From the NCBI GenBank assembly GCA_029262055.1, contig JAJDAD010000034.1, positions 102,430-166,429 of the forward strand: a stretch of 64,000 bases of DNA, in the 5' to 3' direction. Position 1 is the first letter of the stretch, and every line of letters starts with the position of its first letter. Below the pieces are notes generated by a model that worked only from the letters and a program-made list of their open reading frames with translations, ran no database searches and was not told the origin of the DNA. Of the stretch, positions 6,886 through 23,961 are shown piece after piece. Source of the stretch: Candidatus Zhuqueibacterota bacterium (GTDB taxonomy: Bacteria; Zhuqueibacterota; Zhuqueibacteria; Oceanimicrobiales; Oceanimicrobiaceae). The position numbers and the translations under genes are program-made.

Positions 6886-6904
6886 GCTAGCTTTTTGTCC
6901 ACGT

Positions 6905-6926
6905 GCGGTCGTCAACCGCTTTTTTG
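6905..6926 (+). terminator. putative intrinsic terminator after ppk (gcggt-cgtca-accgc + TTTTTT)
   Basis: 5-bp GC-rich stem, 5-nt loop, followed directly by a T6 run 20 nt after the ppk stop. Confidence 0.35.
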
Positions 6927-7284
6927 CTGTATGGACGTTTGCACCCAAAACATCCTGCCTTTTCGGACCCACCTTCCGACCTTGAACCAGCCCGATTCTC
7001 GCAAGTCCCGCTTTTCTTCTTTAGGTTAGCACATTCTCCTATTTGCCTCTCATGGTTCAAGATTTCCCTTGAAACAACACAGAATTAGGCGTACACTATC
7101 GGAAACGTTGGGTGCGAGATGCCTTGTTGCCTGTGTGGCCTCGCAGAACCGGTATTGTGGCTTCTACGTCCCTGGCTCAGAGTCGCACTGATTTGGCAGA
7201 ATTGAGGTACGCGAGGCCTGCAAAACCGCTGGTCCGACTCTCCTTTGGTCATTATGAACTGGTACATTACGGCACCATTCGAGA

Positions 7285-8589
7285 ATGAGAACTCCGAGAT
7301 TCCTCGTTGATATCACCTGCATGTTGTTTTGGGCAGTACTGCTGTTTTGCGCCGGTTGCTCCCAACGTCCATCCGAAAGAGAAGGGGTTATCACCTATTG
7401 GTCAGCCAATAGTCAATACGAGCAGGATTTGGCTAAGGTTGTAGTGGCAGAATGGAATCAACTGCACCCTGACATACCGGTAAGGCACCAGCCGATCCCC
7501 GAAGGCCAGTCCAGTGAAGAAATAATCTTGGCAGCCGTGGTTGGCGAGAGTCCGCCAGACATCTATTCTAATATGTGGCCGGGCGATGTGGAGATTTATG
7601 TGAAAGCCAAAGCGCTGGTACCACTCAGCGACTTCAGCGACTTCGTCTCGGTTGCAGACTCCAGGTTGAAGCCTGAACTCGTGGAAGAGGCACGGTCGCT
7701 GGATGGGAAAGTCTACCAGATTCCCTGGAAAACGAACCCGATTATGATGTTGTACAACAAGGGTGTTCTGGCAGAAAATGGCTTTGCGCATCCTGCAAGA
7801 ACCTATTCGGAGTACTTGGCGCAAGCGAAAGCACTCACCGCTGATTTGGACGGTGATGGGTATACTGACCGCTACATGAGTTTGCTGGATATCCGGGCTA
7901 TCTGGTGGCAGCGTTTCTTTGATTACTATACATTTTATGTTGCCGCAACCGGTGGCAAGACCCTCATGCGTAACGGCCGGCCGACGTTTGATAATCCAGA
8001 ATCTGTTGCCGTCTTCGATTTTCTAAAGACGCTGTTTAAAGAGGAATATGCGCCGCTTGAAAAGGCCACGGGCCGTGGCGACCATTTCTTGGCGGGCCGG
8101 GTTCTTACCCGTTTTACCGGACCCTGGGAAATTACCCACGCCGAAAAATTCAAACCGGATGGATTCGAATATGACTTCGCGCCCATACCGGTGCCGGACG
8201 GATTCGAGGGGCCGGTTTACACTTATGGCGATTTCAAAAACATCGTGATATTTCGTACGAGCAACAAGGCCGAGGCAGCGTGGCAATTTGCGAAATTTAT
8301 GATTTCACGCAAGAATGATCATCGGCTCTTAACCATGACCAGCCAGATACCCATTCGGAAGAATGTTCTTGGAGATTCATTGTACCAGGAATACTTTCAG
8401 GAAAATCCCATGATGATGAGGTTTGCACGGCAGGCTGAGTATGTCCGGGGGATCGATTTAAGCAAAGCCATGAAAGAGGTTTTCGACGCTATTTCGCAAG
8501 AATACGAAGCCTGCGTGGTTTATGCAGCCAAATCGCCGGAAGCGGCGGTCCATGACGCATCCAAGAGGGTGGAGTTGATATTGAAATGA
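7285..8589 (+). CDS. ABC transporter substrate-binding lipoprotein, carbohydrate type (solute-binding family 1)
   Basis: Signal peptide with a lipobox-like LLFCAGCSQ; overall SBP family-1 character; stop overlaps the next permease gene by 4 nt (ATGA). Confidence 0.75.
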   Translation: MRTPRFLVDITCMLFWAVLLFCAGCSQRPSEREGVITYWSANSQYEQDLAKVVVAEWNQLHPDIPVRHQPIPEGQSSEEIILAAVVGESPPDIYSNMWPGDVEIYVKAKALVPLSDFSDFVSVADSRLKPELVEEARSLDGKVYQIPWKTNPIMMLYNKGVLAENGFAHPARTYSEYLAQAKALTADLDGDGYTDRYMSLLDIRAIWWQRFFDYYTFYVAATGGKTLMRNGRPTFDNPESVAVFDFLKTLFKEEYAPLEKATGRGDHFLAGRVLTRFTGPWEITHAEKFKPDGFEYDFAPIPVPDGFEGPVYTYGDFKNIVIFRTSNKAEAAWQFAKFMISRKNDHRLLTMTSQIPIRKNVLGDSLYQEYFQENPMMMRFARQAEYVRGIDLSKAMKEVFDAISQEYEACVVYAAKSPEAAVHDASKRVELILK

Positions 8590-9476
8590 AAGCCGGGCTG
8601 CACAAGAACAAGAAAGGCAAGAGCGACAAAATAGGGTACCTGCTGGTGTCGCCGTACTTGCTGCATCTCTGCTTGTTCGTTGGATTCCCGATTGTTTTCT
8701 GTTTCGTTCTGGTGTTCCACAAATGGGACATCGTGTCTGAGATGGAATGGGTCGGCCTGACTAATTTCAGTCGACTTTTTCAGGATAAACTGTTCTTCAA
8801 GGCGATTCTAAACACGCTGACTTTTCTTTTGGTACATATTCCTTTGCAGTTGATCATAGCGCTGTTCTTGGCGGAGTTGCTCAACCAGAAGCTCAAAATT
8901 CGTGGTTTCTTCCGGGCGTCTTTTTTTATGCCAGTGGTGGTTTCGGGTGTGGTGATTACGATTTTATGGGACCAAATATACGCCCAGGACACCGGAATGC
9001 TCAATCTCATACTGGCGAAATTCGGGATGCCAAAAATGCGGTGGTTGACAAGCCCGGAGCTTGCCATGCCCAGCATCGCGATTATGGCCACCTGGAAGAA
9101 TGTCGGATTATACATCGTGCTGTTCCTCGTTGGCTTGCAAGCTGTGCCGAAGTATCTCTACGAAGCAGCAGACCTCGAAGGGGCATCGCACTGGTACAAG
9201 TTCACCAGAATCACGCTGCCAATGATCAATCCGACCGTTTACATGGTGGTGATTCTGTCAACTATTGGCGGCTTCTCACTCTTTATTGAGCCGTATGTCA
9301 TGACCGGCGGCGGGCCGATGAACTCGACTCTTTCGGCGGTTCTGTATATTTATAATCAGGGCTTCTTTTTCTATCACATGGGTTATGCAGCCACGCTTGC
9401 GTTCTTCTTTGCAGCTATCATTTTCGCGGTGATCATGATTCAGAGAAAAGTAATTGAAAAGGAATCGGCGTACTAG
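8586..9476 (+). CDS. ABC sugar transporter permease (MalF/UgpA-like)
   Basis: Six TM segments; EAA loop 'EAADLEGASHWYKFTRITLP'. Confidence 0.85.
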   Translation: MKAGLHKNKKGKSDKIGYLLVSPYLLHLCLFVGFPIVFCFVLVFHKWDIVSEMEWVGLTNFSRLFQDKLFFKAILNTLTFLLVHIPLQLIIALFLAELLNQKLKIRGFFRASFFMPVVVSGVVITILWDQIYAQDTGMLNLILAKFGMPKMRWLTSPELAMPSIAIMATWKNVGLYIVLFLVGLQAVPKYLYEAADLEGASHWYKFTRITLPMINPTVYMVVILSTIGGFSLFIEPYVMTGGGPMNSTLSAVLYIYNQGFFFYHMGYAATLAFFFAAIIFAVIMIQRKVIEKESAY

Positions 9477-10283
9477 GTGAAAAAACTACAACAATATTCG
9501 CTCCTTGTTTTCTGGACGGTCCTGTTCATCTACCCTTTCTTATGGATGCTGTCCGCGACCCTTCGGCCTGAGCGAGAGATCAAGGGTTTTGGCATTTGGC
9601 CGTCGGAGGTGAGCTTGTACAATTACGCTCAGGTCTTCGAGAAGATTCCTATCTTGCGCGCGTTCCTCAACAGTATTTTTGTCGCATTAGTGGTCACTGT
9701 GGCCGTGGTGGTATTTTGCTCAATGATCGGATACGCGCTTAGCCGCCTGCATTTCAGGGGCAGGGACGCCATCTTTTATATTGTGTTATTCACCATGATG
9801 ATTCCTTTTCAGATCATCTTGATTCCGCTCTATATTCTCATGGTGAAGTTTGGTTGGGTGAATTCTTACCTGGCCCTGATTGTCCCGTGGATGGTGAGTG
9901 CGCTCGGTATTGTTCTGTTCAGGCAGTATTTTCAAAGCATTCCCAAGGACCTCCTGGAGGCGGCCCGAATCGATGGCTGTAACGAAGTGCAAATTATTTT
10001 CAGAATCATTTGGCCTAATTCGATCCCAACGTTGATCACAGTTGGGATCTTGACTTTTATGACCACTTGGAATGAAGTGCTTTGGCCGCTCATTGTTATC
10101 CGTGACACTCATTTGATGACCATGCCGCAACTGGTGACCATCTTCGCCGTGGGCGGGCAGGCGGAGAATCAGCTCGGCGTGCAGTTGGCGGCTGCAACGC
10201 TTCTGGCCTTGCCTGTGATCGTCGCCTACGCGTTTTTTCAAAAATACTTCATCGAAAGCATGGCGACTACAGGTTTGAAATGA
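9477..10283 (+). CDS. ABC sugar transporter permease (MalG/UgpE-like)
   Basis: TM protein with EAA loop 'EAARIDGCNEVQIIFRIIWP'; directly abuts the previous permease gene. Confidence 0.85.
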   Translation: MKKLQQYSLLVFWTVLFIYPFLWMLSATLRPEREIKGFGIWPSEVSLYNYAQVFEKIPILRAFLNSIFVALVVTVAVVVFCSMIGYALSRLHFRGRDAIFYIVLFTMMIPFQIILIPLYILMVKFGWVNSYLALIVPWMVSALGIVLFRQYFQSIPKDLLEAARIDGCNEVQIIFRIIWPNSIPTLITVGILTFMTTWNEVLWPLIVIRDTHLMTMPQLVTIFAVGGQAENQLGVQLAAATLLALPVIVAYAFFQKYFIESMATTGLK

Positions 10284-10308
10284 ACTCAGATAATCCCAAC
10301 TTGAGGAA

Positions 10309-11634
10309 ATGCCGATAGTGAAAACCACAATGCTCGCCCTGAAGCCAGTCCGCTTCTTCTTGTTCATCCTGTTGCTTCTGGGCTGCAACCGCGAGGCGGC
10401 ACAGCAGAAAGTGGGCCTGCAGTGGGTGAACCTTGCCCACTTGAATCACTTATATGAGGAGGTTGTGATCGATGGCAAGCCAATGGCCATCATTCACATC
10501 TATTCCGAGTATCCCGACTACGAGTGGGTGGATGCCAGTGATGAGGGCATCGCTTGCGTAGATGATGTGGCGCGGGCTGCTGTGGTCTATTTGCGCCATT
10601 TTGAAATAACAGAAGATTCTGCCAGCCTTGAGCGGGCCCGCAAGCTACTTGAGTTTTGCCGCTACATGCAGGCCGAGGATGGACAATTTTACAATTTTAT
10701 CTACCAGGACCGTTCGAGAAACACGGACGGCAAGACCAGCTTCAAGAGCTTTGGCTGGTGGGCCGCACGTGGTCTGTGGGCTCTGGGCGAGGGCTATCGC
10801 GTTTTCCTCAAAAGAGATCCGCAATATGCACGCCAGCTTGAAACGCAGATTAAAAAAACCTTCCCCCAAATCGATTCTTTACTTCGGCACTATCCTGTGG
10901 TTGAGACCACAGATGGCTTCTCAGCACCGCAATGGTTGCTTTACAATTCTGCGGCAGATGCCACTTCTGAGCTGATGCTGGGTCTAGCAGCCTATGCAAA
11001 GGCATCAGGCAATCCGATAGTCCTGAGTTATCTTGAGAAATTTGGGGAGGGCTTATTGGCGATGCAACTTGAAGCTGGGTCCTATTTCCCCAGCGGTTTG
11101 CATTTGTCATGGCAAAATACCTGGCACGCCTGGGCAAATGGCCAGACTCAGGCCCTGGGCAGGTTAGCAAGTTTGGTTGAAAACCCACAGTTCATTGAAG
11201 CCGCAAGGTTGGAATGCACGGACTTCTACCCCAAGTGGATTGAACATGGTTTTCCACGCGAGATGACCTTTGTACACAACGGAACCCCCAAGATTGACAA
11301 GATCATGCCATTCGACCAAATCGCCTACGGATTGCGCCCGGCTGTTGTTGGTGCTCTGGTTCTTGCCGACTTGACTGGAGAAGAGCAATTTTCTGAGCTG
11401 GCCGCAAAACTTGCAACCTGGTTTTTCAAGAGTAATCCGGCAATAGCACAAATGTACGACCCGAAAACCGGACGTTGCTACGACGGCATTTTGTCGGCAA
11501 CTCAGGTTAACCGAAACTCCGGTGCGGAGTCAACGATTGAAGCGCTCTACGCTCTCCTGGAAGTCGAGGCTGATCCGGTGGCTAAAGAATGGCTGATGGA
11601 CTATCTCGAAACCCAAAATAGCGGAGGGGGCTGA
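10309..11634 (+). CDS. secreted/lipoprotein with an unidentified conserved domain, possibly glycoside-hydrolase-like; shares a C-terminal motif block with the C-terminal half of the GT4 fusion at 12754-15093
   Basis: Signal peptide + LLGC lipobox. Shared block 'YDPKTGRCYDGIL...NRNSGAESTIEALYALL' vs 'YDPKTGGCRDGLT...NQNEGAESSLAWLLSLM' in the later ORF. Embedded in the GH130/GT4/ABC carbohydrate locus. Fold and function are unknown; a glycoside-hydrolase-like role is only a guess. Confidence 0.5.
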   Translation: MPIVKTTMLALKPVRFFLFILLLLGCNREAAQQKVGLQWVNLAHLNHLYEEVVIDGKPMAIIHIYSEYPDYEWVDASDEGIACVDDVARAAVVYLRHFEITEDSASLERARKLLEFCRYMQAEDGQFYNFIYQDRSRNTDGKTSFKSFGWWAARGLWALGEGYRVFLKRDPQYARQLETQIKKTFPQIDSLLRHYPVVETTDGFSAPQWLLYNSAADATSELMLGLAAYAKASGNPIVLSYLEKFGEGLLAMQLEAGSYFPSGLHLSWQNTWHAWANGQTQALGRLASLVENPQFIEAARLECTDFYPKWIEHGFPREMTFVHNGTPKIDKIMPFDQIAYGLRPAVVGALVLADLTGEEQFSELAAKLATWFFKSNPAIAQMYDPKTGRCYDGILSATQVNRNSGAESTIEALYALLEVEADPVAKEWLMDYLETQNSGGG

Positions 11635-12579
11635 ATGTCAAGTCGAGAGGATCCACGGGAGTTGTTCCAACGTTTTGAAGGTAATCCAATCTTGACTGCC
11701 AAGGATTGGCCCTATCCGGCGAATACTGTTTTCAACGCCGGGGCAACGCGTTTCAACAACCAAACTCTCTTGCTTATCAGAGTTGAGGACTTGCGTGGAA
11801 GTTCTCATTTGACTGTTGCCACGAGTAGAGATGGCGTAACCGGTTGGGAGATAAAAGGGCACCCGGCACTTCATCCTGACGATGGCCTGTCATCAGAAAG
11901 CTGGGGCATAGAAGATCCACGCATAGCTTATCTTGAAACGGATGAGAAGTACGTTATTTGTTACACCGGCTACTCGCGTGGAGGACCGGCGGTCTGTTTG
12001 GCCACGACTGACAGTTTTAGGGATTTCAAGCGGTATGGCACGATCTTGCCACCTTTCAATAAGGATGCTTCAGTATTCCCAAAGAAGATAGGCGGTCAGT
12101 ATGTGCTCATTCATAGACCGGCCTTTTCCGAAGAATCTGCGTACATCTGGCTGGCCAAATCACCGGACCTACAACACTGGGGGCAACACGGGTTGGTGAT
12201 GGAGACACGGCCGGGATTTTGGGACTCACAAAAAATTGGGATGGGCCCGCCGCCGATTGAAACATCGGAGGGCTGGTTGATTCTATATCACGGAGTTCGA
12301 TTAACGGCAGCTGGTTCAATTTATCGATTGGGCCTTGCGCTTTTGGACCTCGAAGATCCGGCGAAGGTAATCCGAAGGAGTCAACAATGGGTTTTCGGCC
12401 CGTCCACCGACTTTGAGCGAGCAGGGGATGTTGACAACGCCAATTTCCCTTGCGGACTCGTTGTCGATGAGCAAACGGATGAGTTGTATTTGTACTATGG
12501 CGCCGCCGACACCTGCCTGGCGCTCGCCACTGCGAAGGTCAGCGAGCTGCTTGAATTCGTGAGAAAGGACGGTTGTTAA
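11635..12579 (+). CDS. GH130-family glycoside phosphorylase / 'glycosidase-related' protein (DUF377, 5-bladed beta-propeller)
   Basis: Motifs typical of GH130 beta-mannoside phosphorylases (GIEDPRI, WLILYHGV); 314 aa; the start codon overlaps the stop of the upstream gene. Confidence 0.75.
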   Translation: MSSREDPRELFQRFEGNPILTAKDWPYPANTVFNAGATRFNNQTLLLIRVEDLRGSSHLTVATSRDGVTGWEIKGHPALHPDDGLSSESWGIEDPRIAYLETDEKYVICYTGYSRGGPAVCLATTDSFRDFKRYGTILPPFNKDASVFPKKIGGQYVLIHRPAFSEESAYIWLAKSPDLQHWGQHGLVMETRPGFWDSQKIGMGPPPIETSEGWLILYHGVRLTAAGSIYRLGLALLDLEDPAKVIRRSQQWVFGPSTDFERAGDVDNANFPCGLVVDEQTDELYLYYGAADTCLALATAKVSELLEFVRKDGC

Positions 12580-12753
12580 ATGAAATGAGACAGATTTTGA
12601 ATACGAACTTGAGGTGCAAGTAACTCGAAACGGTTTTTCATCAAACGGGATGTCACGCGCGTTTTGCTCTGCTATCCGGATTTATACCATTGTTAAGATT
12701 AGAAAACCGGTCCAAATCAAGCGAAATGCCGGGCTGTCTGGGACTAGCCTCCG

Positions 12754-15093
12754 GTGTCTTATGATAACAACTCAAGTAGGAGTGCTATGTCGTCTACCGA
12801 CATGAACTATGAGGAAATTGGCTCGGTTGCTGTAATCGGCAACTATTTGCCACGCCAATGCGGTATTGCAACCTTCACGACGGATCTTGTTGAAGCGTTG
12901 TCAAAGCAAGCTTCCGACGTGAATCTTGAAGCCATTGTCATGAATGACAACCCGGAAGGATACAAGTATCCTGAAAAAGTGCGATTTGAGATTCAACAGA
13001 ACAAGCTTTCCGATTACAACATTGCGGCGGAATATCTCAATATCAATCAGATGGATATTGTCTGCGTTCAACATGAATATGGCATTTTTGGAGGAACTGC
13101 CGGCAGCCATCTTTTGAAACTCCTGGGAGAACTTCGCATGCCTGTGGTGACAACGCTGCACACCGTACTTAAAGATCCCAAGCCTGAATATCGCGAAGTT
13201 ATGCTTAAGCTGACCGATCTATCTGAAAAACTGATTGTGATGAGTAGGAAAGCCGTGAATTTTCTGACCGATATCTATGACATACCGGAAGAGAAAATTG
13301 CCTTTATCCATCACGGCATTCCAGACGTTCCTTTTGTGGATCCCAACTTTTACAAAGAGAAGTTCAGGGTTGAGGGAAAGAAAGTGCTTCTCACCTTCGG
13401 ACTGCTTGCTCCCAATAAGGGCATTGAACATGTGCTGCAAGCGCTTCCAACTATCATAAAAAAACATCCCGACATTGCTTACATCATTTTGGGAGCCACG
13501 CATCCCAATATTCTAAAAGCGCATGGGGACGAATATCGTATCAGGCTGCAGCAGCTTGTTCATAAACTCAATCTCAGTGATCATGTTCATTTTCAAAACC
13601 GGTTTGTCGGACTGAATGAATTATGTGAGTTTCTTGGTGCTGCAGATGTCTATATTACTCCCTATCTGGAAGAAGCTCAGATTACTTCCGGGACGTTGAT
13701 CTATGCGATGGGATCTGGCAAACCGGTTGTCTCAACGCCGTACTGGTATGCAACAGAGATGCTTGCCGACGAAAGAGGAATAATCGTTCCGTTCCAGGAT
13801 TCTGATGCGATCGCGGAGGAAATCACCAACCTTGTCGACCAGGATATGGATCGTAATCAGATCCGAAAGAATGCCTACAGTTTCACTCGCGAGGCGGTTT
13901 GGAGTGAAGTTTCGAAAAGATATCTTGATGTTTTTTGCGAGGTCAAACTCAAACGTTCGTTACACCCCCGCCCTCGTCACTTATACTCCGATAATATCAA
14001 ATCAATCACCAATTTTGAACTACCGGAAATCAAGTTTGACCACCTGAAAATCATGACCGATGATACCGGTATTCTTCAACATGCCACCTACACCATCCCA
14101 AACAGAAATCATGGCTACTGCACCGATGACAATGCCAGAGCACTAGTGGTTACCGCTATGGCCTGCAAATACTCCTCGCCTAACAGCGTGTGGCTGGATT
14201 CTCTCAGCAACCTATATCTCAGTTTTATACTTGACGCCTATAACGAAGACAATGGCAGGTTTCGCAATTTCATGACCTACTCCCGACAATGGATGGAAGA
14301 AATGGGTTCGGAGGATTCTCACGGCAGAGCCCTATGGGGTCTTGGGAAAATCATTGTCTTCACCCACTATACCGGACAGAAGGATGTGGCGACCCTGCTA
14401 TTCAAACGGGCGTTGAATGCGGTCGAAGAATTCGCTTCTCCCCGGGCTATGGCTTTTGCGTTAGTTGGTATTCATGCTTATCTGGAAAAATTCTCGGGGG
14501 ACAGTGAGGTGCGCCGGATGCGAAAAATTCTTGCGGAAAAACTTTTTAAATTGTTTAAAAATAACACGACTCAGAAATGGCCCTGGCTTGAAAAAAAAGT
14601 CAGCTATGCCAATGGTAAATTAGTCCATGCGTTACTCCTCTCCGGCCAATGGATGCAGCGCAATGATATGATTGAGATGGGACTCAATTCGCTCAGATGG
14701 CTGCTCGACATTCAAACCGAAAAGGGACACTTTTCCCCCATTGGGAGTCATGGCTGGTATGAACAAGATCGCCCCAAAGCTCGTTTTGATCAACAGCCTC
14801 TCGAAGCCAATGCGATGATCGAAGCCTGTGTGGAAGCTTTTAACTTAACGAGGAATAGAGTTTGGCTCGATTCCGCTGTCGTGTGCTTTAACTGGTTTTT
14901 GGGACATAACGACTTGAATCTATCGCTCTATGATCCTAAAACAGGCGGCTGCCGCGACGGTTTGACGGCGGATGGAATCAACCAGAATGAAGGAGCAGAA
15001 TCATCGCTGGCCTGGCTACTTTCGCTGATGGCGTTACAAACCCTTTATTCCGATGAAATTCTAAAACAGCCAACGTCCGAATCAGTAGCTTAG
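12754..15093 (+). CDS. GT4-family glycosyltransferase fused to the unknown C-terminal domain also found in 10309-11634
   Basis: N-terminal GT-B/GT4 features. The C-terminal ~350 aa carry the same DPKTGxCxDG...NxGAES block as the standalone protein at 10309. The track start at 12754 is a GTG; an ATG at 12787 preceded by AGGAG (4-nt spacer) is a plausible alternative start. Confidence 0.7.
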   Translation: MSYDNNSSRSAMSSTDMNYEEIGSVAVIGNYLPRQCGIATFTTDLVEALSKQASDVNLEAIVMNDNPEGYKYPEKVRFEIQQNKLSDYNIAAEYLNINQMDIVCVQHEYGIFGGTAGSHLLKLLGELRMPVVTTLHTVLKDPKPEYREVMLKLTDLSEKLIVMSRKAVNFLTDIYDIPEEKIAFIHHGIPDVPFVDPNFYKEKFRVEGKKVLLTFGLLAPNKGIEHVLQALPTIIKKHPDIAYIILGATHPNILKAHGDEYRIRLQQLVHKLNLSDHVHFQNRFVGLNELCEFLGAADVYITPYLEEAQITSGTLIYAMGSGKPVVSTPYWYATEMLADERGIIVPFQDSDAIAEEITNLVDQDMDRNQIRKNAYSFTREAVWSEVSKRYLDVFCEVKLKRSLHPRPRHLYSDNIKSITNFELPEIKFDHLKIMTDDTGILQHATYTIPNRNHGYCTDDNARALVVTAMACKYSSPNSVWLDSLSNLYLSFILDAYNEDNGRFRNFMTYSRQWMEEMGSEDSHGRALWGLGKIIVFTHYTGQKDVATLLFKRALNAVEEFASPRAMAFALVGIHAYLEKFSGDSEVRRMRKILAEKLFKLFKNNTTQKWPWLEKKVSYANGKLVHALLLSGQWMQRNDMIEMGLNSLRWLLDIQTEKGHFSPIGSHGWYEQDRPKARFDQQPLEANAMIEACVEAFNLTRNRVWLDSAVVCFNWFLGHNDLNLSLYDPKTGGCRDGLTADGINQNEGAESSLAWLLSLMALQTLYSDEILKQPTSESVA

Positions 15094-15102
15094 GCCTGCG
15101 GA

Positions 15103-16137
15103 GTGCTTATGCGCATAGCAATGCTGTCACCGGTCGCCTGGCGAACTCCGCCTCGACATTACGGCCCCTGGGAAAGCGTGGTCTCTCTTCTGACTGATAA
15201 TCTTGTGGCGGAAGGTATTGAGGTGACTCTTTTTGCAACCGGCGATTCTGAAACAACGGGTAAGTTACATGCGATTTGCCCGCGGGGATATGAGGAAGAT
15301 GCCTCTATCATTCCCAAAGTCTGGGAATGTTTGCATATTTCCGAAGTCTTTGAACGCGCTGCCGAATTCGACCTCATACATAATCATTTTGACTTTTTGC
15401 CATTGTCCTATGCCAGTCTGGTCGACACACCAGTCGTCGCCACCATTCATGGTTTTTCATCGCCGGGAATTCTACCGGTTTACAAAAAATACAATGGCAC
15501 TGTGTCCTATGTTGCCATCAGCGCTGCCGACCGTTCTCCGGAACTTGATTACGTTAAAACGATTCATCACGGCATCGATATTCGGCAATTCGATTTTCAA
15601 CCAGAGCCAGACGATCATTTACTCTTTTTTGGTCGTATTCATCCGGATAAGGGAACAAGGGAAGCGATTGAAATTGCGAAGGCATGTCGTAAAAAGTTGA
15701 TATTGGCGGGAATCATTCAGGATGAAGGCTACTATCGCCAGCACGTCGAACCGTTCCTGAACAAGAGCGACGTCGTTTATGTTGGCAGCGTTGGCCCCAC
15801 CGAACGGAATCGATTGCTCGGTAATGCCTGTGCGTTGCTCCACCCCATCCGTTTCCATGAGCCTTTTGGACTGTCCATCATAGAAGCCATGGCTTGTGGC
15901 ACTCCAGTGATCGCGTTTAACAAAGGGAGTATGTCTGAACTCATAGAAGACGGCGAAAATGGCCTTCTTGTCAATACAGTAGACGAAGCCATAGACCGGA
16001 TCGCGCAAATTCGGGATATTGACCGGGCCTCTTGCCGTCGTCATGTCGAACGGAATTTCACTGTTGAACGCATGGCCAAAGAGTATATCCAGGTCTATGA
16101 GACTATTCTTGCAAAGAAGAGACAGCAGGAGAGTTGA
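15103..16137 (+). CDS. GT4-family glycosyltransferase (retaining, GT-B fold)
   Basis: 344 aa; family hallmark C-terminal region (EPFGLSIIEAMACGTPVIA) of group-1/GT4 transferases. Confidence 0.8.
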   Translation: MLMRIAMLSPVAWRTPPRHYGPWESVVSLLTDNLVAEGIEVTLFATGDSETTGKLHAICPRGYEEDASIIPKVWECLHISEVFERAAEFDLIHNHFDFLPLSYASLVDTPVVATIHGFSSPGILPVYKKYNGTVSYVAISAADRSPELDYVKTIHHGIDIRQFDFQPEPDDHLLFFGRIHPDKGTREAIEIAKACRKKLILAGIIQDEGYYRQHVEPFLNKSDVVYVGSVGPTERNRLLGNACALLHPIRFHEPFGLSIIEAMACGTPVIAFNKGSMSELIEDGENGLLVNTVDEAIDRIAQIRDIDRASCRRHVERNFTVERMAKEYIQVYETILAKKRQQES

Positions 16138-16430
16138 GAATGTCGACTCAAAAGCAAGTTGTCACGCGTTATCAAAAGAATCTCATTCTCGCCAGGGATG
16201 ATGTCCCCTATCCTGTCGCTACAGTTCGTAAGGCCGGCACCTGTTCCTGTGACTGGGTTGGGGTGGCCTGGATACCGTGATGTGCGTCGGGACCGTGGTG
16301 ACTGACGATCTGGGGCAGTTTTGTTAGACCGATTCATGCCCGCCGCTGCAGCTAATTTCAAACCGGTCGGACTCTTAACATAAAGCGTCAAGTATGAAAC
16401 ATTGACAATAATTGACAATAATAAAATAAT

Positions 16431-17894
16431 ATGGATATGGATTTGAAATTGAAAATTAAAAGAAAAAAGACAAAAATACTCAGGGACACATCACGTGTTA
16501 TAACGCGTTTACACGTTCCCCATGATAAAACGCGCATTCCCAAAATCGTTAATCGGGTCTTACATCTCACAGAAAGCGATGCAGGAGATTTGATAGAAAA
16601 GATTCTACATGAATTTTCCGATCGGCACAAGAATATCAGGCAGGTGTTGGAACGTCACTGTAACGATGTCGCGGAATATATCCCAGAGAGTGAACAGATA
16701 AGCGAAACTAAAAAACTGCTCATCGGCGCCCATTTTACCATGGAATATGCCATTGAATCCGCGGCACTTTTCAATCCCTCTATTGTACCGGATCCGGATC
16801 AAACAAATGTCCCCGAGGGCGGCATTCGTTTCATCATGAGCCTACGTGCGACCGGTGAAGGCCATATCTCTTCCATTGTCTTTCGCAGCGGGATTATTGA
16901 CAAGCAAAATTCGATTACTTTTAACTCTGCCAGCGAATTTGTCGAAACGCCCGGTCTCCGCGTCGACTCCGCTTATAATCGTCACCTGTTCCTGCTCAAG
17001 CTGATGGAAATGAATGCCTGTAATGACACCACGACTCAGGTGCTTGAACAATTGCCGGAGGAGTTTAGCTATAGCGAGCTCAAGGCAAGAATTGGCCGCC
17101 TTTTATCAGATCCCAATGTTTCAGTCAACAGTGAAGCAATCGAAATCATGCACTGGCTGGCCGATAGCAATTATGAAATAAATTTTCCCGTCGATCACAG
17201 AATATCCGAACGGGTGATTTTTCCAGTCTCAGAAAATGAAACCAGCGGTATCGAAGATGCGCGGTTTGTACAATTTTTCGATGAGAATGGCGAAGTCACT
17301 TATTATGCGACCTACACTGCGTACAACGGCATCACGATTCTACCGCAATTGATCGAAACAAAAGATTTTATTACATTTAACATAATTACCCTGAACGGCA
17401 AGGCGGTTCAGAACAAAGGGATGGCTCTTTTCCCGCGCAAGATCAAGGGTCGGTATGCCATGCTCTCGCGCCAGGACGGCGAAAACAACCACATCATGTT
17501 TTCCGACCATCTCCATTTCTGGCAGAAATCGGAAATCATCCAGGAGCCTATGAAACCCTGGGAATTCATTCAGATCGGAAACTGTGGCTCGCCACTCGAA
17601 ACCAGCGAAGGCTGGCTGGTGCTCACCCATGGCGTTGGTCCTATGCGGCAGTATTCAATCGGGGCGATGCTTCTTGACCTTGATGAACCGGCTCAGATTA
17701 TTGGCCACCTTAAATATCCCCTGCTCACTCCCAATGAAGGAGAACGGGAGGGGTATGTACCTAATGTTGTTTATTCATGCGGTGCGCTTATTCATAATAA
17801 CGAATTGATTATTCCTTACGCCATGTCTGATATCACAAGCGGTATTGCGACCGTCAGTGTGAGCGATTTGATTGACAACATGCGTCCGTTGTGA
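16431..17894 (+). CDS. GH130-like glycoside phosphorylase homologue with a ~230-aa N-terminal extension of unknown function
   Basis: C-terminal ~260 aa resemble the DUF377/GH130 fold (GIEDARF, SEGWLVLTHGVG). The N-terminal half has no recognisable motif. The gene start is AT-rich and sits after a 294-bp spacer carrying a tandem TTGACAATAA repeat. Confidence 0.65.
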   Translation: MDMDLKLKIKRKKTKILRDTSRVITRLHVPHDKTRIPKIVNRVLHLTESDAGDLIEKILHEFSDRHKNIRQVLERHCNDVAEYIPESEQISETKKLLIGAHFTMEYAIESAALFNPSIVPDPDQTNVPEGGIRFIMSLRATGEGHISSIVFRSGIIDKQNSITFNSASEFVETPGLRVDSAYNRHLFLLKLMEMNACNDTTTQVLEQLPEEFSYSELKARIGRLLSDPNVSVNSEAIEIMHWLADSNYEINFPVDHRISERVIFPVSENETSGIEDARFVQFFDENGEVTYYATYTAYNGITILPQLIETKDFITFNIITLNGKAVQNKGMALFPRKIKGRYAMLSRQDGENNHIMFSDHLHFWQKSEIIQEPMKPWEFIQIGNCGSPLETSEGWLVLTHGVGPMRQYSIGAMLLDLDEPAQIIGHLKYPLLTPNEGEREGYVPNVVYSCGALIHNNELIIPYAMSDITSGIATVSVSDLIDNMRPL

Positions 17895-18274
17895 AGCTCA
17901 TAAGTTGCAATGGAAATGATTGAAAAGTATCAGAAACATCTTAAGTCTGGCCAAAAGGAATGCGCCCCGATCTGGGAGATGCGTTTTCGTTAGTCATCGA
18001 GCAAATTTTGACAGGATACTACCCTATTCAAGTTGACCGTTCCTCCGGGCACGCGATCTAGACGTTTCCTTGGCCTCAGGAAAGCAATAAAATATCGATA
18101 GGATCGTCGGTCGAGTAGAATTTGACTTACAAAAAAGTCAAGACCTGGGTTAATCCTGGTTTCGCAACCGTCGATTTGGACGAATTACTGAATGAAATGG
18201 GCTGGCGGTATTTCGACCGTCGTTGTTACCATTCAAATCCGACATGTTTGTAACAAGAAGAATCGAGGAATTCA

Positions 18275-19384
18275 ATGGCAAAAGTAACCCTAAAAAACGT
18301 GCACAAGTACTATGATGACAATGTTGCGGCAGTCGATAACTTCAACGCTGAAATAGCCGATCGGGAATTCCTCGTGTTGGTAGGACCCTCCGGCTGTGGC
18401 AAATCAACTACGTTGCGCATGATTGCCGGATTGGAGGAGATCAGCTCCGGCGAGCTGTACATCGGTGAAAAGCTGGTCAATGATATTCGTCCGAAAGACC
18501 GGGACATCGCCATGGTGTTTCAAAACTACGCCCTCTATCCACACATGACGGTCTTTGAAAACATGGCGTTCGGGCTGAAGCTCAGGAAGTTCTCTAAAGA
18601 CGAGATAAATACGCGCGTGCAAGACGCCGCTGCCCTCCTGGACATAAGCGCTCTGCTCAACCGAAAACCGAAAGCTCTTTCAGGTGGCCAGCGCCAGAGA
18701 GTTGCTGTGGGGCGGGCAATCGTGCGCAATCCGCAGGTCTTCCTGTTCGATGAGCCCCTGTCGAATCTAGACGCCAAGCTGCGTGTGCAAACGCGTGCCG
18801 AAATCTCGAAGTTGCATTCCCGTCTGCAGACAACCATGATATATGTCACCCACGACCAGGTCGAGGCGATGACTATGGGCGACCGTATCGTTGTCATGAA
18901 AGATGGTCTGATTCAACAGGTCGACACTCCGATGAACTTGTATGATTATCCTGACAACCAGTTTGTGGCTGGTTTTATAGGAAACCCGGCCATGAACCTG
19001 ATAGCCGGCAAAATTGTGCGCGACAATGGACTGTTCTTTCAAGCGGGCACGCTGCGCATTCAACTTACGCAGAACCAGGAGAAGCTGTTGAGCAAATACC
19101 TGGATAAGGAAATGACATTCGGCATTCGTCCCGAGGACATTTACGAGGCAGGGACAAATCATGGCGTCGAAGCCCGGGCGGAAGCTCCTTTGACAGTGGA
19201 GGTAGTCGAACCCATGGGAAATGAGACCTTCCTGTACACTACCACTGGAGCGGATTCACTTACCGTGCGGCTCCGAACGGGTAGTTCCATCAAAGTTAAT
19301 GACCAGGTCGCTGTCGTTTTTGATTTGTCAAAAATTCATTTTTTTGAAACAGATACAGGCAATGCCGTGCGTGCGGCCGCTTGA
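18275..19384 (+). CDS. ABC transporter ATP-binding protein, sugar type (MalK/UgpC/MsmX-like)
   Basis: Walker A GPSGCGKST, signature LSGGQRQRVAVGRA, Walker B VFLFDEPLSNLD, and a C-terminal MalK-like regulatory domain. Confidence 0.9.
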   Translation: MAKVTLKNVHKYYDDNVAAVDNFNAEIADREFLVLVGPSGCGKSTTLRMIAGLEEISSGELYIGEKLVNDIRPKDRDIAMVFQNYALYPHMTVFENMAFGLKLRKFSKDEINTRVQDAAALLDISALLNRKPKALSGGQRQRVAVGRAIVRNPQVFLFDEPLSNLDAKLRVQTRAEISKLHSRLQTTMIYVTHDQVEAMTMGDRIVVMKDGLIQQVDTPMNLYDYPDNQFVAGFIGNPAMNLIAGKIVRDNGLFFQAGTLRIQLTQNQEKLLSKYLDKEMTFGIRPEDIYEAGTNHGVEARAEAPLTVEVVEPMGNETFLYTTTGADSLTVRLRTGSSIKVNDQVAVVFDLSKIHFFETDTGNAVRAAA

Positions 19385-20445: not shown

Positions 20446-21348
20446 ATGAATATGTCTTGGCGTATCTTCCTGCTCTCACTGATTGCATTTTCAGTTTTTA
20501 CGGAAGTAGTTGTTGCCGGTGGCAAGCCCAGACTTGCGGTGGTGGAATTCGAAGCCAAAGTACCTAAAGCTAAACGCGAGCTTGGTACGGCGATGACGGA
20601 CCTCCTCATAGACGCCCTGGTCAAAACACGACGATATGCGGTTCTGGAACGTACGGTCATAGACAAAATCCGGCAAGAGCAGGATATGACCCTGTCCGGT
20701 GAAGTTGATGCTGCAACCGGCGCTAAATTTGGCCGCATGATCGGTGCGGAGTTTCTGGTAGTCGGCGCGGTCACCAAGTTCGAGGAAAAGGGTGGAGGTG
20801 GCGTCGGCGGTTTGTTGAGCCGCAAGGTGGCAGGCGGCTTTGGGATGCAGGTCTCTGAAGTCGGGATGACGTTGCGGATCATCAACTCTACCAGCGGTGA
20901 AATAATGGCCTCAGAGAAAGTAAGCCAGAAAGAAAAGGCGATTGGAATCGCGGCCGGAACGAGCATTGGCGGCATTCCGCTTGGCGGTGTGCTCTACAAG
21001 AGCAAAGCCATGCAAACCGCCATTGACAAAGCGATCCAGAAGTCGGTGGCGATCATCGGTGACCGCCTGCCTGAGCCTGATCCCAACGCTCCTGATGTTT
21101 CAGTCATCGAGGTCGAAGTGGCGGGAGTCGATTTTAAGTTGCTGAAGATATTTGCCAAAACCATCAAAGGCCTGGATGATGTCTCCAACGTATCGCGGAC
21201 GTTCAGCGATGGCGTAGCCACGTTCGTTGTGCACTACGAAGGTACGGCCGACGAGCTGGCTGAGGCGATCGATGAAGCGAAGCCGGACGACGTGAACCTG
21301 GAGATCACAGGTTTCTCGGACCGCCGGATAGAGATGGAAGCACAGTAA
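20446..21348 (+). CDS. CsgG-family-like outer-membrane lipoprotein with an extra C-terminal domain
   Basis: Signal peptide. N-terminal region resembles the CsgG family (LAVVEFEAK...TDLLIDALVKTRRYAVLERTVIDKIRQEQ) with a Gly-rich loop. The last ~100 aa are an unrelated small domain. No csgE/F/A/B nearby. Confidence 0.5.
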   Translation: MNMSWRIFLLSLIAFSVFTEVVVAGGKPRLAVVEFEAKVPKAKRELGTAMTDLLIDALVKTRRYAVLERTVIDKIRQEQDMTLSGEVDAATGAKFGRMIGAEFLVVGAVTKFEEKGGGGVGGLLSRKVAGGFGMQVSEVGMTLRIINSTSGEIMASEKVSQKEKAIGIAAGTSIGGIPLGGVLYKSKAMQTAIDKAIQKSVAIIGDRLPEPDPNAPDVSVIEVEVAGVDFKLLKIFAKTIKGLDDVSNVSRTFSDGVATFVVHYEGTADELAEAIDEAKPDDVNLEITGFSDRRIEMEAQ

Positions 21349-21837: not shown

Positions 21838-23961
21838 GTGGGCATTAATCTGGACACTATCTTTCGGCCTTCCTCAGTAGCAGTGGTTGGAGCATCTGCA
21901 ACCAAGGGCACGTTGGGGCGCGAGATTTTCGATAAATTGCTGGATACCGATTTCAATGGCCCCGTCTATCCGGTAAATCCCAAAGCCAACTACATTCACT
22001 CGGTAAAAGCTTACACTGATTTAGCCTCTATCCCGGGCGAAGTGGATTTGGCGGTCATTGTCGTCCCAAAACAGTTCGTTCTGCAGGTGGTGAGGGACTG
22101 TGCTGACAAGGGCGTAAAGGGCCTGGTCGTCATCACCGCCGGATTCAAGGAGACAGGGGAGGACGGCGCCCGGCAACAGGCTGCCATGGTAGACATTTTG
22201 CGGGCGCACCAAATGCGCATGGTCGGCCCTAACTGCATGGGGGTGATCAACACGGAGCCGGATATTCGCCTCGATACTACGTTTGCGCCTATTGTTCCCA
22301 TGAACGGAAATGTCGCCCTGGCCTCGCAAAGCGGCGCCCTGGGTCAGACGATCCTCGAGCATGCGCACGAGCGCGACCTTGGCATTTCAATGTTCGTTAG
22401 TGTCGGCAACAAAGCCGATATTTCCGGCAATGATCTGCTCGAGTACTGGCATGACGAACCCACGATTGAAGTGATTCTAATGTATCTGGAGAGCTTTGGT
22501 GACCCCGCGAGGTTCTTCCGGTTGGCAAAAGAAGTGAGTTTAAGAAAGACCATTGTGGTGGTCAAGTCGGGCAGAACATCGTCGGGCGCGCGCGCAGCCA
22601 CATCGCACACGGGCGCGTTGGCCGGCACTGATACGGCTTACGACGCTCTGTTTAAACAATGTGGTGTCGTTCGCGCGGATACGATAAACCAGATGTTTGA
22701 TTTCGCCATGGGGTTTTCCAACCTACCGCTGCCGGCTGGCCGGCGCGTGGCCATCATCACAAACGCCGGCGGCCCCGGAATTATGGCCGCCGATGCCTGT
22801 GAGAATCACCATCTGGAGGTCATCGAGTTGGGCCAGAAGACCAGACAGGCACTGCGCGAGCGGCTGGTGCAGGATGCGTCGGTTGAGAACCCGGTCGACC
22901 TGCTTGCCGGCGCCCAGCCCGAGGAATTCCAGGTGGCGTTGGACCTGGTTCTGCATGATCCGGCGGTCGATGCAGTGATCGTCATTTTCGTTGCGCCTGT
23001 GATCACAAGTCCACCAGACGTCGCTTCCAAGATAGCGAAAGCCGCTGCTGGTTTTAACAAACCAGTGCTGGGTTGCTTCATGGGAGTACAAGGGGTAGCT
23101 ACCGGCATTGAGGAGTTACACCGGCACCGCATCCCGGCGTTCGCTTTTCCTGAATCAGCCGCACGAACGCTGGCAGCAATGGTTGACTATAAGCGGTGGC
23201 TGAGTACGGCCGCGAGCCCTGTTCCCAAAATAGACTGTAACAAGGAGCAGGCGTTGCAAGCAATCGCCGGGGCGCAAGCCGCAGGCCGCCAGCTCTTAAC
23301 CCTGGCGGAGTGTTTGCGGGTTTTGCAGGCTTACCAAGTCCCCTTTGTGAAAACAGCCATTGTAGACACCCTGGACAGTCTGTTGGCTGCCGCGGAGGAA
23401 ATGGACTTTCCTCTGGTCTTGAAATGCACCGGCGAAAAGATCGTACACAAATCCGAGTTTGGCGCCGTCAAATTGAATATTACTGACACGGAGGAACTGC
23501 GGGCAGCGCATGCAGAGCTCCTGGCCTCTCTGGGCCGGCACAACATCAAGCCGGCGGCAGTTTCTCTTGTCTTGCAAGAGATGCTGTCGGGCGGGAAGGA
23601 AGTTGTGAGCGGTGTGAGTCGGAACAGCGACCTCGGGCCTCTCGTTATGTTTGGCTTGGGTGGCATCTATGTCGAGTTCCTGAAGGATGTCACTTTCAGA
23701 CTGGCGCCGCTGACTGATTGCGATGCCAGTAACATGATGCAGGAAATACGTTCCTATCCCATCCTTCAGGGCGTTCGCGGCGAGGCGCCGGTGGCTGTTG
23801 ATTTTGCACGCGATGTTCTCCTGAAGCTCTCCCAGCTAAGTTTGGATCTGCCCCAGATTGAGGAAATAGATCTCAATCCAATAGTACTCTACCCGGAGCC
23901 AAGTCGCTGTGCTGCAGTAGATGTGCGAATCGCGATCAGATCCGAATCCGTCGCCAGTTGA
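21838..23961 (+). CDS. ADP-forming acetyl/acyl-CoA synthetase (fused alpha-beta, NDP-forming acyl-CoA ligase family)
   Basis: N-terminal CoA-binding domain (VAVVGASATKG), a succinyl-CoA-synthetase-like ligase-CoA domain and a C-terminal ATP-grasp; 707 aa as for fused ACD enzymes; GTG start. Confidence 0.8.
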   Translation: MGINLDTIFRPSSVAVVGASATKGTLGREIFDKLLDTDFNGPVYPVNPKANYIHSVKAYTDLASIPGEVDLAVIVVPKQFVLQVVRDCADKGVKGLVVITAGFKETGEDGARQQAAMVDILRAHQMRMVGPNCMGVINTEPDIRLDTTFAPIVPMNGNVALASQSGALGQTILEHAHERDLGISMFVSVGNKADISGNDLLEYWHDEPTIEVILMYLESFGDPARFFRLAKEVSLRKTIVVVKSGRTSSGARAATSHTGALAGTDTAYDALFKQCGVVRADTINQMFDFAMGFSNLPLPAGRRVAIITNAGGPGIMAADACENHHLEVIELGQKTRQALRERLVQDASVENPVDLLAGAQPEEFQVALDLVLHDPAVDAVIVIFVAPVITSPPDVASKIAKAAAGFNKPVLGCFMGVQGVATGIEELHRHRIPAFAFPESAARTLAAMVDYKRWLSTAASPVPKIDCNKEQALQAIAGAQAAGRQLLTLAECLRVLQAYQVPFVKTAIVDTLDSLLAAAEEMDFPLVLKCTGEKIVHKSEFGAVKLNITDTEELRAAHAELLASLGRHNIKPAAVSLVLQEMLSGGKEVVSGVSRNSDLGPLVMFGLGGIYVEFLKDVTFRLAPLTDCDASNMMQEIRSYPILQGVRGEAPVAVDFARDVLLKLSQLSLDLPQIEEIDLNPIVLYPEPSRCAAVDVRIAIRSESVAS

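Follow-up and report, generated by a model that had tools for sequence, protein, structure and literature searches.

Why should the permease genes of a sugar importer in Candidatus Zhuqueibacterota be parted from their ATPase gene by a run of glycosyltransferase and phosphorylase genes, and what do the proteins in between do? The locus in question occupies positions 7285-19384, on the forward strand, of a 64,000-nucleotide stretch of contig JAJDAD010000034.1 (assembly GCA_029262055.1; hereafter the window), and contains two copies of a domain that we call X, one in an exported lipoprotein (lipoX) and one fused to a family 4 glycosyltransferase (GT4). A preliminary description had taken it for a split ATP-binding cassette (ABC) importer operon; the gene order behind that reading stands, but two spliced modules, of which one has partly decayed, account for it better. 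We consider it highly probable that two modules, each conserved in its own right, make up the locus in place of a single split operon: module A, an importer with lipoX and a GH130 enzyme, and module B, a cassette of the GT4-X fusion, a second GT4 and GH130 enzymes. All genes lie where the preliminary description had placed them, as seen in the open reading frame (ORF) map and in scans with Pfam and NCBIfam models (aa, amino acids; SBP, substrate-binding protein):

7285-8589, + strand: module A SBP, CUT1-type (Pfam SBP_bac_8 and SBP_bac_1)
8586-9476 and 9477-10283, + strand: module A ABC permeases, two genes (Pfam BPD_transp_1 in each)
10309-11634, + strand: module A exported lipoprotein lipoX, 441 aa, lipobox, one X domain of the 7TEM/YPO2471 family
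11635-12579, + strand: module A short cytoplasmic GH130 (Pfam PF04041, 206.9 bits)
12754-15093, + strand: GT4-X fusion ORF, 779 aa, opened by GTG 12754 (Pfam GT4 domains at residues 37-379, none after ~400)
12787-13965, + strand: module B atypical GT4 domain of the fusion (Pfam Glycos_transf_1 and Glyco_transf_4; PimA alignment)
13966-15093, + strand: module B X domain fused to the GT4, fusion residues ~405-779 (no family match in Pfam or NCBIfam)
15103-16137, + strand: module B second GT4, canonical, TeGSS-like (phmmer against 7FG9/7FGA)
16140-16348, + strand: module B deletion relic of a short GH130 (tblastn, tblastx)
16431-17894, + strand: module B long GH130, 487 aa (Pfam covers residues 258-484 only, 118.1 bits)
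18275-19384, + strand: module A MalK/UgpC-type ABC ATPase (Pfam ABC_tran, OB_MalK and TOBE_2; NCBIfam UgpC subfamily, 495.9 bits)

Two modules and a relic

Module B recurs on its own in other genomes. In six of six other loci (L002-L005, L088 and L089; four with source names, namely Planctomycetota, Desulfobacterales, Zixibacteria and Pseudomonadota, and two on large contigs), the GT4-X fusion (767-773 aa), the second GT4 (339-450 aa), a short GH130 (313-314 aa) and a long GH130 (387-496 aa) follow one another in identical order; the co-occurrence of fusion and GH130 that the preliminary description had proposed to look for is thus found, as a four-gene cassette with two GH130s. None of these six loci contains a transporter, nor any flippase, polyprenyl or export gene, and their flanks are unrelated housekeeping genes.

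Module A has the composition of a CUT1 carbohydrate importer, with a family-1 SBP, two BPD_transp_1 permeases and a MalK-type ATPase bearing an OB/TOBE domain. The best solved relative of the SBP is Listeria Lmo0859 (4GQO, E 4e-35), with maltose-type binders far behind; Lmo0859 is presumably linked at the gene level to the GH130 Lin0857, and a cluster lmo0858-0865 is documented. When one genome per species was scanned, at least 584 lipoX relatives came up, in Calditrichota, KSB1, Ignavibacteriota, Bacteroidota, Gemmatimonadota, Bacillota, WOR-3 and others. Of the best 80 of these loci, many on truncated contigs, 51 have an SBP orthologue (42-67% identity) 5' of lipoX and 51 have a GH130; for orthologues of the two permeases (57-81% identity) the counts are 53 and 58. 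In L060 and L079 the MalK orthologue comes directly after the GH130 gene, its start some 1 kb past the GH130 match and, in L060, with a 37-bp gap; the spacing in L032 and L025 is similar. The short GH130 of the window shares 57-68% identity with the GH130s found after lipoX in other loci, against 39-40% with the short GH130s of module B. A partial parallel to the composite is seen in L006, which reads SBP, permease, permease, lipoX, fusion, GH130.

The junction between the second GT4 and the long GH130 retains a trace of the missing cassette gene. Inside this 294-bp gap, and exactly in the slot of the cassette's short GH130, about 210 bp (16140-16348) correspond to the first 33 codons of that gene (58-70% identity to L002-L005 and L088) and to its last ~30 (65-70%); the two pieces are in different frames, with an internal stop, and about 250 codons between them are deleted. 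The matches are significant: tblastn gives E 2.7e-9 and 1.2e-5 when the whole window is searched and 3e-13 and 4e-13 when only the segment is, and tblastx with L088 gives E 2.4e-19. The five genes described between permeases and ATPase are all present, but a sixth element, the relic, stands among them. Only this gap (16138-16430) holds such a relic; the gaps at 12580-12786, 17895-18274 and 6886-7284 had no translated similarity to any fetched locus. In the simplest history, module B would have been inserted between the module-A GH130 and its ATPase gene, which is why the importer operon appears split, and would afterwards have lost its own short GH130 by internal deletion.

Both modules have further neighbours in individual genomes. 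In the Planctomycetota locus L002, and there only, genes for a diadenylate cyclase (DacZ/DAC, 8998-9888) and a GGDEF protein (16244-17149) flank the cassette, which could link it to osmotic or second-messenger control. Module-A loci include a GH2 beta-mannosidase (L007, L060), a LacI regulator (L063) and a PorV-like outer-membrane protein. Larger proteins also occur there: an 855-aa protein with a faint GDE_C match (L007, 6391-8958); proteins of about 1040 aa with Laminin_G_3 and T9SS sorting domains, directly 3' of lipoX (L006, 14773-17898; L007, 11380-14511); and a 1068-aa protein without family, 5' of the PorV-like gene (L060, 2642-5848). These large extra proteins, in Bacteroidota and KSB1, may be surface glycan-binding or glycan-cleaving partners.

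The X domain and its fusion to a GT4

We wondered what X is, given that it is common to both modules. Neither window copy has a significant Pfam or NCBIfam match, but the domain is not as unknown as first described; a solved structure exists, as residues 37-437 of lipoX are homologous to PDB 7TEM (YPO2471 of Yersinia pestis, phmmer E 1.9e-84), and the C-terminal part of the fusion matches the same entry (E 3.6e-10). The sequence block that had been noticed in both copies is real (BLASTP E 5e-10). With significant sequence similarity and the same fold, X belongs to the 7TEM/YPO2471 family, and on structural modelling it is an (alpha/alpha)6 six-hairpin barrel. 7TEM, a structural-genomics entry, is a stand-alone exported protein, whereas the fused cytoplasmic X clade is ~20-25% identical to it; our literature search for YPO2471, 7TEM and PH1107-related proteins found no paper.

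The families first proposed as relatives (GH63, GH15, GH37, GDE_C and GH125) are not the nearest ones; the fold comparison, with Foldseek in accord, places X closest to AGE/cellobiose-2-epimerases, GH76 and GH9. Its fold neighbours include GH76 alpha-1,6-mannanases (27.8), a GH9 exo-glucosaminidase (26.7) and the mycobacterial endo-mannosidase MmpH (25.3), followed at lower rank by many further six-hairpin enzymes. Sequence identity is 8-14% to the epimerases and ~12% to MmpH.

Conservation points to a glycosidase-like active site. Across 259 fused and free X domains, G50, D54, D55, R58, N101, R121, G168, W205, W207, N216, Q276, W310, G313, N315, D331, N341, G343 and E345 (X numbering) are at least 97% conserved, the adjacent Asp-Asp pair and the C-terminal Glu each at least 98%, and the pair 99%. 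Predicted helices start on D54/D55, N216, Q276 and E345 or at most one residue away from them; R121 is set five residues deep in its helix. In six-hairpin enzymes the helix-start face of the barrel is the active-site side. The candidate catalytic residues are:

lipoX: D85, D86, E407 (invariant alignment columns)
fused X: D458, D459, D735, E749

An N-terminal Asp pair followed by a C-terminal Glu recalls both GH9 and MmpH, in which Asp47, Asp50 and Glu262 were chosen for mutagenesis (PMC9883506). In sequence order only, D54/D55 ... E345 is comparable to the catalytic Asp pair (DAGD) and later Glu (NEVA) of GH9, and Pfam GH9 (PF00759) is matched at E <= 1 by 12 of 23 lipoX homologues (best E 7.9e-9), with co-linear matches of 27.9-35.7 bits in eight that were rescanned, against a gathering score of 27.7. 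We did not adopt membership in GH9 itself: the two X domains of the window have no GH9 match at E <= 1, neither reaches the PF00759 threshold, and the DAGD, H-x-R and NEVA motifs are not demonstrated. On balance we favour X being a glycoside hydrolase or transglycosylase.

Two other readings of X deserve consideration. X could be an AGE/cellobiose-2-epimerase-type epimerase or isomerase that renders a mannoside fit for phosphorolysis by GH130, a role that cellobiose 2-epimerase plays in beta-1,4-mannan catabolism. AGE-type enzymes use a pair of His residues on the inner barrel helices, but no His is conserved past residue 39 among the 259 X domains, which have Asp-Asp, Arg, Asn, Gln, Asp and Glu as their conserved polar residues and so speak against a His/His mechanism like that of the epimerase neighbours. 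With only the low identity given above, and with one X clade being an exported lipoprotein, an odd site for an epimerase feeding a cytoplasmic phosphorylase, we regard this reading as improbable.

Alternatively, the adjacency of the two Asp residues is reminiscent of GH76, and module A might then target fungal or yeast-type alpha-mannan with beta-1,2-mannose caps, X being a GH76-like retaining endo-alpha-mannanase with the Asp-Asp pair as nucleophile and acid/base. The sole alignment that places this pair on a GH76-like DD (4MU9) is a HMMER segment of -1.1 bits and not significant, however, and the weak Pfam GH76 match falls on a different hairpin (residues 345-397 of the window protein against profile positions 159-206). 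The loci inspected contain no alpha-mannosidase of GH92, GH125, GH99 or GH38, and the fusion of X to a cytoplasmic GT4 in thousands of genomes would go unexplained, making this alternative distinctly unlikely.

The family is large (4913 cluster representatives at 50% identity, E <= 1e-3) and divides by location. The exported clade has an N-terminal hydrophobic run in 94 of 120 lipoX homologues and a lipobox in 37; lipoX itself has a K/R-rich N-terminus followed by FFLFILLLLG-C26, with the lipobox LLLLG-C26. The cytoplasmic clade is mostly fused to GT4, and only two of its 67 short representatives, several of which are fragments of fusions, carry such a run. Rarer architectures have X in N-terminal fusion with an esterase of BD-FAE/alpha-beta-hydrolase type (P0381) or with a GFO/IDH/MocA oxidoreductase (P0389), and the 1122-aa P0426 has an additional N-terminal region of ~380 aa ahead of its GT4.

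The combination of a GT4 with a hydrolase-like module in one polypeptide, to which the preliminary description had drawn attention, is a very widespread protein family. The best 120 of at least 8000 matches to the fusion are 764-799 aa long, with 97-99% query coverage and 72-100% identity; relatives of 72-75% identity have source names in Desulfobacterales, Planctomycetota, Zixibacteria, Caldithrix and Pseudomonadota, and Thermodesulfobacteriota also appears among the source names. More than 100 full-length database proteins rule out the assembly or frameshift artefact that had been named as a possible objection. Translation probably starts at Met12 (ATG 12787, 768 aa), to judge from the database copy of the same protein, which begins there; an exact-sequence look-up with the 779-aa form came back empty.

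Both GT4 proteins of the window exceed the gathering scores of Pfam Glycos_transf_1 and Glyco_transf_4, but the fused GT4 departs from the canonical motifs. Aligned with PimA, the diphosphate-binding Arg of GR...KG is Leu (FGLLAPNKG), and the second Glu of the EX7E motif is Tyr (...EEAQITSGTLIYAMG). Both changes are kept in 66 diverse fusions (FGLLxPxKG), in which Q298, S301, G302 and L304 are conserved instead.

GH130 enzymes, the second GT4 and flanking sequence

To what kind of sugar do these proteins point? Both intact GH130s of the window far exceed the PF04041 gathering score of 26 with the scores listed above, have the five-bladed beta-propeller fold and, as the preliminary description had wanted established, keep the catalytic Asp, D94 in the short and D276 in the long protein, aligned with D137 of Uhgb_MS. 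Residues were mapped in Uhgb_MS numbering (PMC12814180), with Teth514_1788 and TM1225 as further references:

Short GH130 of module A (window): R49; E93-D94; K143-D144 at the K184-D185 position; R161 (R202); K200 (R242)
Long GH130 (window): R139; E275-D276; K329-G330 at the K184-D185 position; R347 (R202); Q381 (R242)
Short GH130s of module B (other loci): Glu-Asp; Arg-Asn at the K184-D185 position; Arg (R202); Lys (R242)

A Glu before the catalytic Asp marks beta-1,2-active GH130s, and a Tyr beta-1,4-active ones (PMC4599007); the combination of Glu-Asp with Lys at the +1-subsite specificity position has been published as marking beta-1,2 enzymes (PMC12814180; PMC4599007). Glu stands beside the catalytic Asp in 13 of 13 GH130s examined from both modules, the module-A short and the long forms have Lys at the K184 position, and both window proteins thus combine the two markers (E93/K143 and E275/K329). 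With NCBIfam models for beta-1,2-mannobiose phosphorylase they score 209.9-238.3 bits against equivalog cut-offs of 450-550, so that neither is an equivalog; the long GH130 finds its best sequence and structure match in the beta-1,2-oligomannan phosphorylase Teth514_1788. These residue states make a beta-1,2-type mannoside the probable GH130 substrate. Mannose is also indicated by the occurrence of GH130s in both modules, by the GH2 beta-mannosidase of L007 and L060 and by the cupin fused to some orthologues of the second GT4, described below.

The phosphate site differs between the two architectures. The short GH130 retains all three phosphate-binding basic residues (K143, R161 and K200); the long form keeps K329 and R347 but has Gln381 in place of R242 and Gly330 in place of D185, states that are the same in five of five mapped long sequences, with Q381 and G330 invariant in a 52-sequence family alignment. 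Hydrolase-type Glu substitutions at this site occur in none of the mapped GH130s. R242 of Uhgb_MS is in contact with the two phosphates of GDP-Man, and its R242A mutant is affected in transferase more than in phosphorylase activity (PMC12814180); the Gln of the long form may therefore shift donor preference.

The novel N-terminal extension of ~230 aa that had been ascribed to the long GH130 is composite: a ~100-aa hairpin and helical region and a ~60-aa helical insertion (184-245) are indeed additional, but residues 103-179 between them are genuine GH130 strands. The 487-aa architecture is found with 67-84% identity over 96-100% of the length in the listed homologues (at least 8000 matches), and this family-wide conservation means that the extension is not peculiar to this genome. 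Just upstream of the gene, at 16402-16430, lies a near-consensus sigma-70-like site (TTGACA, 17 nt, AATAAT; 11 of 12 matches), the single strong promoter-like site before the long GH130; it sits inside a tandem 'TTGACAATAA TTGACAATAA' repeat and ends one base 5' of the ATG. If functional, it would give a leaderless transcript, or imply a start at Met3, the database copy beginning two residues later.

The second GT4 is 43% identical to TeGSS (tll1591; PDB 7FG9/7FGA) end to end over 341 columns (phmmer E 9e-82). It has canonical GT4 motifs (FFGRIHPDKG and EPFGLSIIEAM) and keeps Tyr18, Arg179, Lys184 and Glu256 of TeGSS as Y20, R178, K183 and E253, with Trp10 offset by one residue; by full-length similarity and these four catalytic residues, it is classified here as a TeGSS-like alpha-1,2-glycosyltransferase. 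TeGSS is a glucosylsucrose synthase that elongates alpha-1,2 oligosaccharides (PMC9909042). Two differences set the present genes apart: no sucrose-phosphate synthase gene adjoins the second GT4, and its orthologues in L002 and L003 are fused to a PF01050 mannose-6-P-isomerase-type cupin that TeGSS does not carry. The preference in the preliminary description for a specific glycoside over generic polysaccharide use is supported by this similarity to TeGSS, by the beta-1,2-type markers and by the lack of GH5/GH26 mannanases noted below.

Could the locus simply be a plant beta-1,4-mannan or manno-oligosaccharide operon, into which unrelated GT4 genes for cell-envelope glycan synthesis have strayed? 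The name of the Pfam model and the best PDB matches of the short GH130 (TM1225 and RaMP2) are those of beta-1,4-manno-oligosaccharide phosphorylases, related loci contain the GH2 beta-mannosidase and LacI regulator, and in source annotations the fusion goes by the name 'glycosyltransferase involved in cell wall biosynthesis'. The two GH130s of the window, however, have Glu rather than Tyr by the catalytic Asp and Lys rather than Arg at the specificity position, and neither a GH5/GH26 mannanase nor a cellobiose 2-epimerase was seen in the loci inspected. The GT4 genes belong to a fixed four-gene unit in all six cassette loci, with unrelated flanks and without flippase, polyprenyl or export genes, and X, shared by modules A and B, ties the two together. 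We consider this explanation very improbable.

A compatible solute is an unlikely alternative product of module B, which would then make a small osmolyte, either a heteroside or a short oligosaccharide of, for instance, sucroglucan or mannosyl-glycoside type, rather than a polymer, with X as a dedicated hydrolase removing it after stress. TeGSS itself elongates processively, the two GH130 architectures recall the pair of oligomer and dimer phosphorylases in Thermoanaerobacter (PMC4264767), and the pairing of an exported X with an ABC importer points to a glycan big enough to need extracellular cleavage.

Malic enzyme and polyphosphate kinase genes lie 5' and unrelated genes 3' of the locus. 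A terminator-like hairpin is present at 6905-6919, 5' of the SBP gene, but terminator-like sites in the window match the shuffled expectation (14 against 14.1), and the promoter and terminator scan was not decisive for operon boundaries; no RNA family was found by Rfam at gathering thresholds anywhere in the 64 kb. The 381-bp gap before the ATPase gene contains a short inverted repeat, TTGACT-(8 nt)-AGTCAA, at 18120-18150. Just 3' of the locus are a gene of the CsgG family (curli secretion channel-like, 20446-21348), a 121-aa ORF without family and an acyl-CoA synthetase (ADP-forming)-type protein (21838-23961). Further on, adjacent genes encode proteins of 555 and 639 aa (26390-28057 and 28141-30060) whose sole Pfam match is a C-terminal FlgD_ig domain, also found at the C terminus of large secreted proteins adjoining lipoX in L006; taken with best hits that resemble Caldithrix and KSB1, this hints at an organism of the FCB group.

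A proposed cycle of import, building and remodelling

Gene content, the two-module architecture, the relic, the fold and family of X, its conserved residues and the residue states of the GH130s and GT4s are direct observations. Bringing these elements together, we infer a scenario that includes X as a hydrolase, the identities and linkages of the sugars, the direction of flux and the action of both modules, linked by X, on the same glycan. Module A would act as a scavenging system, in which lipid-anchored X cuts an extracytoplasmic glycan, the ABC importer takes in the fragments, and the cytoplasmic GH130 phosphorolyses terminal beta-mannosyl residues, of beta-1,2 type, to alpha-mannose-1-phosphate. 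Module B would be a cytoplasmic cassette for the building and turnover of a related oligosaccharide: the canonical GT4 would use a nucleotide sugar to lengthen an acceptor through alpha-1,2-type linkages, the GH130s, being reversible, would add or remove beta-mannosyl units with Man-1-P and phosphate, and the fused X would cleave or remodel the chain, for example regenerating primers as MmpH does for the GT4 ManT in mycobacteria. For the full scenario of import, phosphorolysis, building and remodelling of a mannose-containing oligosaccharide, we put the chances at about even.

Several observations weigh against it. GT4 enzymes form alpha linkages and GH130s act on beta-mannosides, implying either a mixed-linkage glycan or enzymes that act on different molecules. 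The locus has no gene for GDP-mannose synthesis, and TeGSS, the nearest characterised relative of the second GT4, uses UDP-glucose, not GDP-mannose (PMC9909042). Lacking the canonical Arg and second Glu, the fused GT4 may fall outside the ordinary nucleotide-sugar transferases. The short GH130 of the window has the beta-1,4 enzyme TM1225 as its best PDB match (E 6.6e-62; RaMP2, E 1.5e-55), the Arg-Asn pair of the module-B short GH130s resembles that of beta-1,4 enzymes, the long GH130 also occurs in catabolic-looking loci (L007 and L009), and the nearest functional fold neighbours of X are epimerases.

Four systems offer the nearest functional precedents by analogy: a Thermoanaerobacter cluster, mycobacterial ManT/MmpH, glucosylsucrose synthesis by TeGSS and the Leishmania mannogen cycle. 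The first, Teth514_1785-1796 of Thermoanaerobacter sp. X-514, serves beta-1,2-mannoside salvage and is alike in its ABC importer, its two GH130s of differing chain-length preference, its GT4 and its unidirectional layout; it has a GH5, a mannose-1-P guanylyltransferase and two ATPases, unlike the present locus (PMC4264767). It has neither a GT4-X fusion nor a long-form GH130, and no X domain is reported there, two of its 'hypothetical proteins' being left out of the comparison. Our literature search for GH130 and GT4 together found only this cluster and reviews. In mycobacteria, ManT (GT4) and MmpH, an (alpha/alpha)6 endo-mannosidase, are encoded by separate genes, not a fusion; the MMP system has methyltransferases where the cassette has GH130s, and its polymer is alpha-1,4-linked (PMC9883506). 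The resemblance, as an analogy, is one of logic and not of family membership. The mannogen cycle of Leishmania, with its GT108 MTP enzymes, and dual-activity GH130 enzymes provide a further functional precedent (PMC12814180), though no GT4 or six-hairpin partner is known in Leishmania.

A bolder reading, possible but doubtful at present, is that the cassette constitutes a new cytoplasmic carbohydrate cycle, spread over at least half a dozen phyla and the counterpart of the Leishmania mannogen or mycobacterial MMP cycle. If so, nucleotide sugar and Man-1-P would supply the units of a mannose-containing oligosaccharide with mixed alpha and beta linkages, which the fused X would trim to primers and phosphorolysis would recover; module A would be the matching scavenger of the same glycan from other cells; X would found a new glycoside hydrolase family; and donors could be handled in non-canonical ways by the fused GT4 and by the long GH130 with its Gln381.

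All parts of the locus come from known superfamilies (GT4, GH130, six-hairpin barrels and CUT1 importers), yet no characterised representative exists for the GT4-X fusion, for X as an enzyme, for the long GH130 or for the four-gene cassette, very widespread though they are. X is a probable new glycoside hydrolase family for which a crystal structure, 7TEM, is already in hand, and a GT4 subfamily without canonical donor-binding residues and a GH130 subfamily with an altered phosphate site are further candidates. Being so widespread and conserved, the cassette probably makes an abundant, unrecognised bacterial carbohydrate, and the existence of a matching module of exported enzyme and importer points to its being traded or scavenged in sediments and soils as well.

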